NCBI GenBank assembly: GCA_039028615.1
Contig: JBCCHT010000005.1
Span: forward strand, 96,001 to 160,000
Length of the DNA stretch: 64,000 nucleotides
Reading direction: 5' to 3'
Source of the DNA: Myxococcota bacterium
GTDB lineage: Bacteria > Myxococcota_A > Polyangia > Nannocystales > Nannocystaceae
Program-made: the position numbers and the translations under genes
The notes under the pieces: model-generated
What the model was told of the DNA's origin: nothing
Databases searched by the model: none
What the model saw: the letters and a program-made list of their open reading frames with translations, nothing else
In this document: positions 11,372 through 15,156 of the stretch, piece after piece
Position numbering within the stretch: position 1 is the stretch's first letter
How the letters are laid out: the number at the start of each line of letters is the position of its first letter

Positions 11372-11485
11372 GGTCTCCCGGAGGGATCGGTCCTGATGGA
11401 TCGCCCGCAGTCTCACGTGCTCGATGCGTACACCGTGGCCGTCCAACGAGCAACGGATCGCGATGCAGGCTACGCTGCGGCGTCC

Positions 11486-12007
11486 ATGGAGCGGGTCGGT
11501 CTGCACGGTCTCGACGAACGAGGGGTGGCCACCGCCGCCGTCGCGCTGGGAGCGGTGCTGCAGCCCGGTGACGTGCTGTTGCTGGAGGGTCCGATGGGGG
11601 CGGGCAAGACCACGTTCACGCGGGCGCTGGCCGAAGGTCTTGCTGTACGTCGGCCCGAACGAGTGCGAAGTCCCACGTACAACCTGTGCCTGATCCACGA
11701 CGGGCCGCGGCCGCTCGTGCACGTGGATCTCTTTCGTCTCGCGCAGACCGACGAGGGCTCTGCGCCGGTCGGCGAGGCGGCCTTCGAGTCGCTCGGGCTC
11801 GATGCGCTGGGCGAAGGGCTGGGCGGCCCCGAGCCGGTGTTGGTCGTCGAGTGGGCAGACCTGTGGGCGGCCCCACCGGCCGATCACCTACGGATTCGAC
11901 TGCAGCCCGAGCCCGACGATCATCAGCGCAGAACATTGATCGTGAACGCTCACGGGTCGCGAGCCGCCGAGCGACTCGCGGCTTGGCAACCCGCCGCGCC
12001 GGCCTGA
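11486..12007 (+). CDS. tsaE: tRNA threonylcarbamoyladenosine biosynthesis ATPase TsaE
   Basis: LEGPMGAGKTTF, SPTY, HVDLFRL, VEWAD motifs. Confidence 0.93.
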   Translation: MERVGLHGLDERGVATAAVALGAVLQPGDVLLLEGPMGAGKTTFTRALAEGLAVRRPERVRSPTYNLCLIHDGPRPLVHVDLFRLAQTDEGSAPVGEAAFESLGLDALGEGLGGPEPVLVVEWADLWAAPPADHLRIRLQPEPDDHQRRTLIVNAHGSRAAERLAAWQPAAPA

Positions 12008-12393
12008 TTCGGTTCGGGTGGGCGCCCTCGAGGCGTGGTGTCGGGCGGGCGCCCGGGGCCCCGACGATGGCGGAATGCCCCGATCTCGGCGCTCGGTCCC
12101 GCCCTGGGCAATCCCTGCACACGGCGTGGGCCGGGCCACGCAGCGTCAGGATCCCGCCGCTAGATCTCCGGTTCGACAGGCCCGTTTGGGGCGCGAATTT
12201 CGGGGACGCTGGACGATTTTCGCTTTTCAAGCCCGTCTGGGCGGGTTTATCGTCCGGGCGAGCCGAGCGCTCCGCGGCCCCCGCGGAGCACGCAACCGCG
12301 CTCCCCATCCCAAGAATCACCGCCAGGGTTCCTCCCGGACCCCGGCATCCAAAACACCACGATTAGCGTCAACTCGCTCAGGATCAACAGACC

Positions 12394-12588
12394 ATGGCCA
12401 AAGCGTCCAAGCCCAAGGAAATCGTCGTCGTCGGCTCGAAGGTAAAGGAAGTCATCAAGGAAGCTGGCCTCCGCAGCGACGGCGAGCTCGTCCAAGCCGT
12501 TTCCGACAAGGTTCACGAGCTTCTCGAGGCCGCCATCGAGCGCTGCCAGAGCAACAACCGCAGCACCGTGCGTCCGCACGACCTCTAG
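12394..12588 (+). CDS. Bacterial histone (histone-fold singlet, 64 aa)
   Basis: VVVGSKVKEVIKEAG alpha1, long alpha2, C-terminal RSTVRPHDL (RxTxxxxD); AGGA RBS; 3' hairpin. Confidence 0.88.
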   Translation: MAKASKPKEIVVVGSKVKEVIKEAGLRSDGELVQAVSDKVHELLEAAIERCQSNNRSTVRPHDL

Positions 12589-12601
12589 GCGACACGCCAA
12601 C

Positions 12602-12633
12602 GCCGAGCGAGGACGAGCCGTCCTCCGCTCGGC
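12602..12633 (+). terminator. GC-rich hairpin downstream of the histone gene
   Basis: GCCGAGCG-AGGACG/agc/CGTCCT-c-CGCTCGGC; no U tract. Confidence 0.5.
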
Positions 12634-12783
12634 ACCCGAGCCAGGCCGTCACGCGAACTTCCGCGTGGCGGCCTCGTTCGTTCCCGGGCGTTGTCCGTGC
12701 AGGCCCGGTCGCACCCCGGACGCACGCCACAATCGCGGTTTGCGGTGTATCTGGGAGGTGTCCAGGGCGTATCCTTGGCAGCG

Positions 12784-13500
12784 ATGAACCTCCGGGACGC
12801 CGTGCTGAAAGCCGCCAGCAACTACCTCCGTACTCATCCCGAAGAGCTGTCGCGGATCCTCCGCAACGCGATGGGCCTGCGGTTTGGTGTTCCGATCGCC
12901 GGGTTGCGCTGGCTGGCCGCCAACGGCGGAGACGGTGGTCCCGAAGACGTCGAGATCGACCCCTGTCCGCCGGGCATCCGCATCGGCGCCACGGTCGAGC
13001 TGATGGGCACCAACGTCCGCGCCGTCACCATCCTCTACATCGAGCGCATTCGGATGTCGGCCGAGGAGCTTCGGCTCGAGGTTCGCCTGGAAGACACGAA
13101 GATGACGGTGCTCGGCGATGCCGAGTCCCCGGTGGCGGCGCTCATCAAGTCGGGCGCGCTCGACCTCACCAAAAGCGGCAATCTCGCGGCGCACCTGCCC
13201 GGGCTGTCCCGGCTGCTGGGCGAGTCCACGGGCAACCGGCTGGTCATCGATCTCATGAAGCACCCCGTCCTGGGCAAGAACCGGGTGGCCCGTCGGGTGC
13301 TCGGCTTGGTCTCCTCGTTCGTCACCGTGCACGGGGTCGAGTCCGACGAGGGGCACCTGGACGTCTTGATGCGGGCCTTCCCCCGCGGCATGGGCGGAGC
13401 AGCCCGGGCCGTGCGGGACCACGTGTTCACCGATGGCCCTCCGTGGATTCGGGGGATGCTTCCGGGCCGGAGCAACGGCGAGCCCCGTCGCGGGTACTGA
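12784..13500 (+). CDS. Hypothetical protein (238 aa)
   Basis: ATG at 12784; strong GC3 bias, globular composition; no recognised motif. Confidence 0.75.
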   Translation: MNLRDAVLKAASNYLRTHPEELSRILRNAMGLRFGVPIAGLRWLAANGGDGGPEDVEIDPCPPGIRIGATVELMGTNVRAVTILYIERIRMSAEELRLEVRLEDTKMTVLGDAESPVAALIKSGALDLTKSGNLAAHLPGLSRLLGESTGNRLVIDLMKHPVLGKNRVARRVLGLVSSFVTVHGVESDEGHLDVLMRAFPRGMGGAARAVRDHVFTDGPPWIRGMLPGRSNGEPRRGY

Positions 13501-13691: not shown

Positions 13692-13766
<75 letters not shown>

Positions 13767-13956: not shown

Positions 13957-15156
13957 TCAGATGACGACGGCGAGTCGGGTCTGACCCACGGAGAACTCGT
14001 CTTCACCGCCGAGTTCGACGGGCGCCTCGATGACCGCATCGTTGACCCGCACGGTGCCGTCGCCGGTCAGCGGTCGCAGGTGCGGGCGGTTGGGCACGCC
14101 GCTCCACTCGAGCACGGCGTGGACGCGGGGCACGGCGTCGTCGCGCAGCTTGATCTCGCAGCGTCGGCCGCTGCCGATGCGGTAGCTGCCGGGTAGGAAC
14201 AGCTGCTCCACGACCTCGTCGTCGGGCGTGAGCATGCGGAGCTTGGCGGCGACCGGGATGTCCATGTCGCGGTGCAGCACCAGGCCCAGGACGTTGGCGA
14301 AGGCCCCCGCGTTGGGCGGCCGGGCCTCGGGGTCCTTGTCGAGCGCCCGGGCGATGCCGCTGACCAGCGAGTCGGGCAGATCCTTGCAACCCTCGCACTG
14401 CCGGATCGGCGTCGGAGGCGTCTGCGCGTGGGCTTTGAGCCACTCGGTGGGGTTGTGGCGCAGCTGCTCCTTGAGCTCCAGCAAGGGGATGCCGGGGAAG
14501 AAGGGGCTGCGACCGGACAGCAGCTCGAACAGGATGGTGGCCAGGCTGTAGACGTCGCTGGCCGGGGTGAGCACGCGGGTGCGCAGCTGCTCGGGCTGCG
14601 AGTAGTGCGGCGTGCCCACGACCATGTGGTTCTCGGTGGCGTTGACCCCGACCACCGGGCTGCCGTCCCACGATCGCGCGAGACCAAAATCGAGCATTTT
14701 GATCTTGCCGTCGCGCTCGATGAAGATGTTCTCGGGTTTGACGTCGCGATGCACCACGCCCATGGCGTGGGCCTCGGCCAGACCGAGGCACGCCTGGTGG
14801 ATGATCGTGACCGCCTGCGCAGGGTGAAGCGGTTTGCCGAAGTCGTGCCAGTCGTCGAGCGAGCAACCGCTGAGCAGGTCCATCAACAAGTAGATGTGAC
14901 CGTCGGGTCGCAGGCCGCAATCGAAGGTGCGGACGACGTGGGGGTTGGTCAGCGAGCGGAGGATCGTGATCTCGCGGAGGGCTCGCTGCGCTTCTTCGCC
15001 CGAGTGCACGGGCTCGCGAGTGAGCTTGAGGGCGAGGCGCTGGGGGTAGCCGGGCGATTCGACTTCATAGACGCGAGCGAACGAGCCGACGCCCAAGACA
15101 CCATGGATCTTGATGTTGCCCGCGTAGACGTCCCCGGGCTGGAGATCGAGCGGCAT
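13957..15156 (-). CDS. Cytoplasmic Ser/Thr kinase with C-terminal FHA-like domain
   Basis: GVGSFA, ALK, HRDVKPEN, DFG, GTPHY..PE; tail YRIGSG..CEIKL.D..V.RVHA..L..EDEFSVG. Confidence 0.93.
   Translation of the reverse strand: MPLDLQPGDVYAGNIKIHGVLGVGSFARVYEVESPGYPQRLALKLTREPVHSGEEAQRALREITILRSLTNPHVVRTFDCGLRPDGHIYLLMDLLSGCSLDDWHDFGKPLHPAQAVTIIHQACLGLAEAHAMGVVHRDVKPENIFIERDGKIKMLDFGLARSWDGSPVVGVNATENHMVVGTPHYSQPEQLRTRVLTPASDVYSLATILFELLSGRSPFFPGIPLLELKEQLRHNPTEWLKAHAQTPPTPIRQCEGCKDLPDSLVSGIARALDKDPEARPPNAGAFANVLGLVLHRDMDIPVAAKLRMLTPDDEVVEQLFLPGSYRIGSGRRCEIKLRDDAVPRVHAVLEWSGVPNRPHLRPLTGDGTVRVNDAVIEAPVELGGEDEFSVGQTRLAVVI

Follow-up and report, generated by a model that had tools for sequence, protein, structure and literature searches.

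A Face-to-Face Histone of the Nannocystaceae, Probably a DNA-Wrapping Tetramer, and Its Second Paralogue

Within the window, i.e., the whole 64,000-nucleotide stretch of Myxococcota DNA that was analyzed here, a small gene encodes a protein of 64 amino acids whose sequence and predicted structure support its assignment to the face-to-face (FtF) alpha3 histones and not to the Bd0055-type dimers. Very probably, the protein is a homotetramer-competent FtF histone that wraps ~60 bp of DNA irrespective of its sequence and, alongside three HU/IHF proteins, compacts the nucleoid. The preliminary description of this DNA had called it a stand-alone histone, which is true of the locus, where the gene lies alone, but not of the genome, which contains a second FtF gene.

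The Histone Gene and Its Locus

12394..12588, plus strand: FtF alpha3 histone gene, 'type A' (64 aa; P0001), from sequence, conservation and models
11429..12007, plus strand: upstream neighbor tsaE (PF02367; Pfam E 1.2e-24), start codon uncertain

The open reading frame (ATG to TAG) is a real gene and not a chance occurrence, as 245 of 246 candidate homologues match at E<=0.001 and the comparison with eight close orthologues yields a pN (0.02-0.07) far below the pS (0.22-0.48). An overlapping minus-strand reading frame of 117 aa was treated as the shadow of a GC3-rich gene since conservation follows the plus frame. The tsaE-like gene ends at 12007, leaving a gap of 386 bp, in agreement with the upstream region of its own of ~390 bp that had been described. 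The adjacency to tsaE is probably synteny only. In three genomes tsaE occurs without the histone, and a functional link was rejected: the histone is served by a promoter of its own, and where it is missing, tsaE is followed by a gene of the RlmL or UvrD type.

Downstream, a gene of 238 aa (12784-13500, plus strand) shares 84-89% identity with its counterparts in close relatives and follows the histone only in these. It matched no Pfam, NCBIfam or named Atlas family, its Atlas neighbors being unnamed clusters with Myxococcota as the commonest phylum. A tRNA-Pro(CGG) (13692-13766, plus strand) comes next and then, 1.4 kb downstream of the histone, a Ser/Thr kinase that carries an FHA domain at its C-terminus (13957-15156, minus strand); as the kinase adjoins the histone only in a few close relatives, no link between the two is claimed. 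Rfam gave no match at E<=1 on 11900-12900, NCBIfam gave no informative match for either histone paralogue, and the search for a mobile origin of the histone returned no phage match and only four distant matches on haloarchaeal plasmids.

Histone Fold and Assignment to the Face-to-Face Class

12541..12585, plus strand: codons R50-L64, with the tetramer residues R50, S53, N54, R56, H62 and L64 and the R56-D63 clamp, from the HLp alignment and predicted contacts
12394..12417, plus strand: N-terminal tail of eight residues with three Lys, predicted to be disordered (pLDDT 54 for residues 1-10) and variable among orthologues (tail survey)

The best match in the PDB was HLp of Leptospira perolatii (9QT0, E 1.8e-10), aligned without gaps, while HBb (1.2e-4) and HTkC (0.004) matched more weakly. 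The AF2 model, built on an alignment of the query with 78 of 120 listed matches that were picked for a length up to 78 aa and for spread (79 sequences in all), features helices at residues 13-23, 29-53 and 61-63 with a mean pLDDT of 81. This is the three-helix fold of an alpha3 histone, with alpha3 cut to three residues and a short alpha2 of HLp spacing. The truncated alpha3 and the chain end one residue after the RxTxxxxD motif, both read from the sequence earlier, are borne out by the model and by the C-terminus (RSTVRPHDL, i.e., R56xT58xxxxD63 followed by L64 and the stop). The HMM and Foldseek searches that had been proposed as a check were less clear-cut: HLp, HTkC and HBb filled the top rows of Foldseek, but none at E<=0.001, and both CBFD_NFYB_HMF (20.0 vs 21.4) and DUF1931 (17.2 vs 21.8; E 0.006) scored under the Pfam cut-off. 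VIA-align did not separate histones, its best Z of 4.2 being tied with unrelated helical chains, and a search of the genome with PF00808 recovered only the type A gene, below cut-off, and missed the type B paralogue.

According to the accessible part of the current histone classification (PMC11390915), FtF histones are marked by an Arg and an Asn late in alpha2 (R48 and N52 of the HMM), an RxTxxxxD motif in which no conserved Lys follows the Arg, and conserved lysines in alpha1. All of these are found in the window histone, namely R50 and N54, R56-S57-T58...D63-L64-stop, and the alpha1 lysines. R50, N54, R56, T58, and D63 are invariant in 79/79 aligned homologues and in 80/80 loci typed by genomic context. 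In the same 80 loci, K16 is present throughout, K18 in 78 (Arg in two), and Lys or Arg at position 22 in all; likewise, the DNA-contact residues K16, S28, G30, T58, and R60 are kept in 80/80 and S15, like K18, in 78/80. The chain stops right after the clamp, as required for the bridge from Arg to the C-terminal carboxylate that the accessible part of the HTkC preprint (10.64898/2025.12.06.692711) describes. A four-copy model scored 0.89 against 0.02 for the best control, with runs agreeing in at least 87% of contacts and a partner pLDDT of at least 89; 20 of 30 solved pairs and 1 of 23 single chains attained the mark set for this score. Beyond the handshake, contacts with the partner chain across the dimer-dimer boundary are predicted at residues 49-50, 53-54, 56, 60, and 62-63, one ring interface being seen, and these equal the HLp interface (R49/S52/N53/R55/T61/F63) shifted by one. 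As the structures of HLp and HTkC are solved, the pass shows likeness rather than binding, and such likeness can likewise explain why the proposed AlphaFold check succeeded. The earlier assignment to the face-to-face tetramer type is upheld by the invariant residues, the PDB match and the four-copy model together.

The likeness to HLp (PDB 9QT0/9QT1/9QT2; PMC12701072, accessible part) extends to a length within one residue (63 aa in HLp), the equivalence of R49/N53/R55 with R50/N54/R56, the RD clamp and a terminal hydrophobic residue. Likewise, its top five DNA-binding residues R59, K21, K15, S14, and K17 correspond to R60, K22, K16, S15, and K18. Nevertheless, identity amounts to ~41%, and the DNA-binding K54 of HLp is an Asn in the window histone. 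With the archaeal HTkC of Thermococcus kodakarensis (PDB 9F2C) the protein shares the class of ring-shaped tetramers, predicted in the present case, and the late-alpha2 Arg, the loss of which turns HTkC into a dimer-like bender; yet identity is ~34%, the clamp Asp is replaced by His in HTkC, and HTkC reaches a hypercompact state not seen for HLp (10.64898/2025.12.06.692711, accessible part). HBb/Bd0055 of Bdellovibrio bacteriovorus (PDB 8CMP, 8FVX) belongs to the same alpha3 superfamily, with short alpha2 and alpha3, the S-K motif and the RD clamp, but the accessible sources describe it as lacking the tetramer Arg and Asn, having RKT and working as a dimer. The comparison with Bd0055 suggested by the preliminary description accordingly places the window histone with the FtF and not with the dimer type.

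Several other identities were set aside. The presence of R50 and N54 and of RST instead of RKT does not fit the bacterial-dimer class. Nor is there room for the N-terminal ZZ zinc finger of a ZZ histone, with only eight residues ahead of the core and the frame closed by a stop nine codons upstream (open frame of 73 aa). A pseudodimeric DUF1931 histone, a doublet fold that lacks DNA-binding residues, does not fit either, because the protein is a singlet, scores below the family cut-off and keeps the DNA residues. A redox role of Cys51 (53/57 type A loci) was set aside as the position sits in the dimer interface and is occupied by Thr or Ala in type B as well as in HLp, HTkC, and HBb.

[quoted passage not shown] It probably adds a little DNA affinity.

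Expression Signals

12225..12230, plus strand: putative -35 box TTTCAA, from a pattern common to 40/57 orthologous loci
12248..12253, plus strand: putative -10 box TATCGT with a 17-bp spacer, from the same conserved pattern
12270..12288, plus strand: GC-rich hairpin close to the predicted mRNA's 5' end (z -3.9 for the 12258-12396 fold)
12380..12383, plus strand: Shine-Dalgarno-like AGGA, 10 nt before the ATG, from sequence
12602..12633, plus strand: first 3' hairpin, without U-run (z -4.8; 0/200 shuffles fold as well)
12644..12673, plus strand: second 3' hairpin, without U-run, followed by a pyrimidine-rich stretch (z -5.3; 0/200 shuffles fold as well)

Stock scans for sigma-70 promoters and for terminators returned 0 sites each. 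The type A promoter pattern TT[G/T/C]C[A/C]N-N17-18-TA[T/G]NNT occurs in 40/57 distinct upstream regions, compared to a mean of 0.34 and a maximum of 2 in 100 shuffles, a count that overstates the support since the pattern was drawn by eye from these same related loci. A ribosome-binding site had been described and is present in the form of AGGA, though short and rather distant from the start codon; a Shine-Dalgarno-like 4-mer is found in 39/57 orthologous loci. Instead of the single 3' hairpin reported before, there are two, and the second is likely to form the 3' boundary of the transcript.

Of 11 listed metatranscriptome runs, each containing less than 0.2 of the words, four were compared with the locus, and their contigs, which stem from relatives, cover 12270-12589. 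The closest RNA contig (304 nt, 11 differences) starts at 12270, 17 nt past the -10 box, and two contigs of relatives stop 35 and 52 nt past the stop codon. This weakly hints at a short, single-gene histone mRNA in relatives and says nothing of its level; RNA depth and uncovered flanks cannot rank genes here, as the contigs stem from relatives and were picked with this region. Among 10,691 segments of 64 codons, the histone ranks in the 99th percentile by how closely its codon use resembles that of 23 ORFs from the ribosomal-protein cluster; the signal is small (mean log ratio 0.07) and was obtained with a crude ORF set.

Apart from these elements, A/T-rich tracts recur every ~10-11 bp 5' of the -35 box (12184-12219) as well as upstream of type B genes. 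The recurrence is seen with either type of promoter, in 40 A and 17 B loci, and the tracts may serve as an UP-like element or for autoregulation, or may represent bent DNA. Genome-wide, the AA/TT periodicity has a broad peak at 10.7 bp (10.4-11.1), which, in the absence of a control genome, is neutral with respect to wrapping.

Host Distribution and Previous Reports

The named relatives of the histone belong to the Nannocystaceae, the closest being that of Paraliomyxa miuraensis with 97% identity and the same neighbors, which bears out the earlier description of the host as myxobacterium-like. A histone match was found in 24/24 other genomes of the family, 7/16 other genomes of the class and 47/201 of a sample of the phylum. 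The view that such chromatin is little explored was overrated: FtF histones in Myxococcota were already reported (PMC11390915, accessible part), and the Schwab data file, in its accessible part, classes A6GF99 of Plesiocystis pacifica as 'Face-to-face'. The adjoining entry of that file, A6GJS9, is FtF as well and may be a second Plesiocystis gene. Moreover, Fig. 1A of the HBb paper shows an alignment with A6GF99, WP_052547863.1 (Enhygromyxa salina), and WP_096326703.1 (Nannocystis exedens), all from the same family as the window histone; no characterization of any of the three was found in the literature searched, as far as its accessible text goes. Given these reports and the commonness of tails, class, host family and tail were already known, and the window gene extends a known class, its value being that of an entry point. 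The histone literature covered also includes PMC10627809, the HBb preprint 10.1101/2023.02.26.530074, and PMC11789641. In the accessible sources, only one bacterial FtF histone is characterized; it comes from Leptospira, which lacks HU and has this one histone.

A Second Paralogue and the Distribution of Types A and B

Exactly two histone matches at E<=1 were detected in the host genome. The second gene, type B (G000:C4:255564-255770; L002:1501-1710), encodes 69 aa with a Lys-rich tail of 13 residues; its core is 82% identical to that of type A, none of the 10 differences falling on an invariant interface residue, and its net charge is +8, compared to +1 in the nearly neutral type A protein (pI 7.9). 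The gene is divergent from ftsQ-ftsA and convergent with ftsZ, so that the usual gene order ftsQ-ftsA-ftsZ is rearranged.

Typing by neighbor alone divided 89 distinct loci into 57 after tsaE (A), 23 by ftsQ/ftsZ (B) and 9 with neither in the flank. The types defined in this way differ in tail (medians of 8 vs 13 residues with 3 vs 7 basic ones) and at position 57 (Ser in 57/57 A, Gly in 22/23 B), position 55 (Lys in 0/57 A and 22/23 B), and position 51 (Cys in 53/57 A, Ala in 20/23 B). A type B promoter pattern, drawn by eye as well, occurs in 17/23 B and 0/57 A loci, and the type A pattern in 0/23 B loci. A tree of 168 columns has a moderately supported branch (90/86, not starred) that sets off all 57 A rows along with two unplaced ones; the B rows are not recovered as one group.

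Among 25 genomes of the family, 15 hold both types, six only A and four only B, each holding at least one histone; five genes in four of these genomes were typed by sequence and not by neighbor. The ftsQ locus of A-only genomes was free of a histone in 5/5 cases checked, as was the tsaE locus of B-only genomes in 3/3 where tsaE was found. Since three of the B-only genomes are 71-85% complete, a true loss of type A is likely only for some. Cultured strains with A and B include Paraliomyxa miuraensis, Enhygromyxa salina, and Plesiocystis pacifica, and those with A alone Nannocystis punicea (complete genome) and N. exedens. The occurrence of either type, often both and never neither suggests an overlapping function, and the fact that tail, charge and promoter have stayed different points to partial specialization, as argued for archaeal histone variants (PMC7776873, accessible part). 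There, in the Methanobacteriales, old duplicates are likewise separate in phylogeny and gene order and are predicted to differ in affinity; unlike those nucleosomal histones, the A/B pair is FtF and bacterial, and its members diverge chiefly in their tails, charge and promoters. The existence of single-type genomes led to the rejection of an obligate A/B heterotetramer.

A further-reaching interpretation, which we regard as possible but doubtful, is that the Nannocystaceae possess a histone-variant system of two old paralogues at fixed loci, separate since before the radiation of the family and differing in promoter, tail and charge, which would form A4, mixed and B4 rings of graded affinity with a mix that shifts with growth or development. 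If so, the window gene would be the weak-binding variant. In the literature searched, which covered few subscription journals, no case of bacterial histone variants was found, and neither was a discussion of the A/B types of the Nannocystaceae, PMC11390915 being accessible in part. The cultured strains with A and B or with A alone allow a direct test of whether histone variants are combined into chromatin by bacteria.

Three side observations concern this gene family. At L089/L112 (G011:C485), the histone of the ftsQ/ftsZ locus combines a long B-type tail with an A-like C-terminal motif, which could reflect gene conversion between the paralogues. A distant, long-tailed FtF-like gene occurs in two A-only genomes (L127 and L128; G006 and G022), and Cys-rich ZZ-like fusions occur in six genomes of the family (L129-L134); neither was among the matches at E<=1 in the host genome.

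Proposed Mechanism and Alternative Explanations

The gene would encode an abundant, sequence-independent nucleoid protein and be transcribed into a short mRNA from a promoter of its own. Two chains would join in a histone handshake dimer, and two dimers would close to a ring via the alpha2 ends, loop 2 and the alpha3 stub (R50, N54, R56, and the free C-terminus of L64). The rim residues S15, K16, K18, K22, S28, G30, S57, T58, and R60 would then grip the DNA backbone, with ~60 bp of DNA running round the tetramer. Tetramer formation in solution, wrapping and abundance are expected here by analogy with HLp and HTkC. From a comparison of the two sequences, type A may bind DNA more weakly than type B, and mixed tetramers are plausible. 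Either type appears to suffice alone. The histone would act beside HU/IHF and not replace them: the genome contains three HU/IHF-family genes (G000:C29:62098-62370, C31:7262-7531, and C37:118556-118858) with codon-use percentiles of 95, 22, and 71, compared to 99 and 98.5 for the histones. Unlike Leptospira, which according to the accessible sources has one histone with its gene by smc and no HU, the host has two FtF and three HU/IHF genes and the histone gene follows tsaE, so the histone need not be the main packager. The cultured strains make it testable as well how a wrapping histone shares a 12-Mb chromosome of 68% GC with HU/IHF.

Points that count against this mechanism include the weak results of the structure and Pfam searches, the absence of type A from its locus in three genomes that keep type B, the near-neutral net charge and the missing K54 contact of HLp. 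The last two agree with a low-affinity modulator that acts mainly in mixed complexes with type B and binds DNA poorly alone, a role to which the charge difference between the paralogues, Asn instead of Lys at position 55, the closely similar cores with their shared interface and the joint presence in 15/25 genomes would also be suited. Such a role is unlikely, however, as six of the 25 genomes hold A without B, with a histone-less ftsQ locus in all five checked, as the complete genome of Nannocystis punicea has a single match of type A, and as all main DNA contacts of HLp are kept. The idea that the protein works as a dimer that bends or coats DNA without wrapping, like HBb/Bd0055, draws on the shared truncated alpha3 and S-K motif and on HBb as a PDB match; it is very improbable, given that R50 and N54 are invariant here and absent from the bacterial-dimer class (PMC11390915, accessible part), that RST replaces RKT and that dimer-dimer contacts are predicted with confidence.

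The preliminary description had also raised the possibility of a modifiable tail. A regulatory code of modifications on the N-terminal lysines, to be read by some partner, would fit a basic tail of predicted disorder and the ZZ-like histone fusions of some relatives (weak third matches with Cys-rich N-termini, labeled by likeness to the description in the accessible part of PMC11390915, as Pfam gave no match). Still, the 57 orthologous loci contain 27 different tails of 6-12 residues with 1-4 basic ones, some thus having a single basic residue, which argues against a code that is read; no ZZ-like histone was found in the host genome, with its two matches at E<=1, and PMC11390915 itself, in its accessible part, doubts that ZZ domains read such tails. 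A tail code is accordingly quite unlikely and the suggestion of a modifiable tail was not supported. A histone-fold protein with a role away from DNA, comparable to DUF1931 proteins, would be in line with the weak DUF1931 match, the near-neutral charge and the export signals that derivatives in other bacteria carry by a crude signal-peptide test, but the protein is a singlet without signal peptide that keeps its DNA-contact residues, making such a role scarcely credible. The wrapping homotetramer consequently remains the preferred explanation.

Derivatives in Other Bacteria

As judged from sequence comparisons, the FtF family appears to be the donor of putatively exported nucleic-acid-binding proteins and of patchwork pieces in other bacteria. 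A search for longer homologues yielded 81 proteins. Signal peptides were judged by a crude test (a basic start, then a hydrophobic stretch and small-x-small; no trained predictor), which 68 of the proteins passed. None of the signal-peptide, RRM or patchwork derivatives occurs in the genome of the window. Signal-peptide or RRM histones and patchwork ORFs were not found in the literature searched, which included the text and data file of the classification (PMC11390915) in part and few subscription journals. If the signal-peptide derivatives are truly exported, they would represent a histone category missing from the searchable text and data file of that classification.

A family combining signal peptide, RRM and FtF histone was observed in metagenomes of varied GC (P0142-P0192, alignment A2; loci L157-L163). 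All 39 aligned RRM-bearing proteins of 156-163 aa contain PF00076, with a fold that matches RRMs, followed by the histone, which is 68-84% identical to the core of the window histone and keeps nearly all FtF and DNA residues. Mean identity within these fusions is 77% in the histone, 48% in the RRM and 33% in the signal part. The six complete fusion loci range from 46 to 70% GC, and their histone part follows the codon use of the host (GC3 0.32-0.95); the conservation of the histone together with this host-like codon use and GC range fits long-term selection in varied hosts. No shared neighbors were seen among these six loci, and no relatives of the RRM-fusion alignment were present in 36 candidate stretches of viral contigs. 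Taxon names are attached to only two derivatives of the RRM type, one from a gammaproteobacterial MAG and the other from a deltaproteobacterial one. In the RRM tree, A-type and B-type C-terminal motifs alternate at least four times (few columns), which could reflect repeated replacement from free histone genes or simple toggling.

Signal-peptide doublets and singlets from the same family were also observed (P0123-P0136, P0061, P0075, P0082, P0084, and P0232), the leaders of three signal-bearing singlets presumably being twin-arginine-like. In addition, patchwork ORFs exist on single contigs (P0196, P0200, and the C-terminus of the RHS protein P0199). They are either an artifact or, if real, a sign of capture from abundant transcripts, the histone among them. 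With 70-94% identity, their in-frame pieces of 12-45 residues match the A/B histones of the window's genome, EF-Tu, GroES, RRM proteins, and proteins of the TIGR04563 and VgrG-like kinds.
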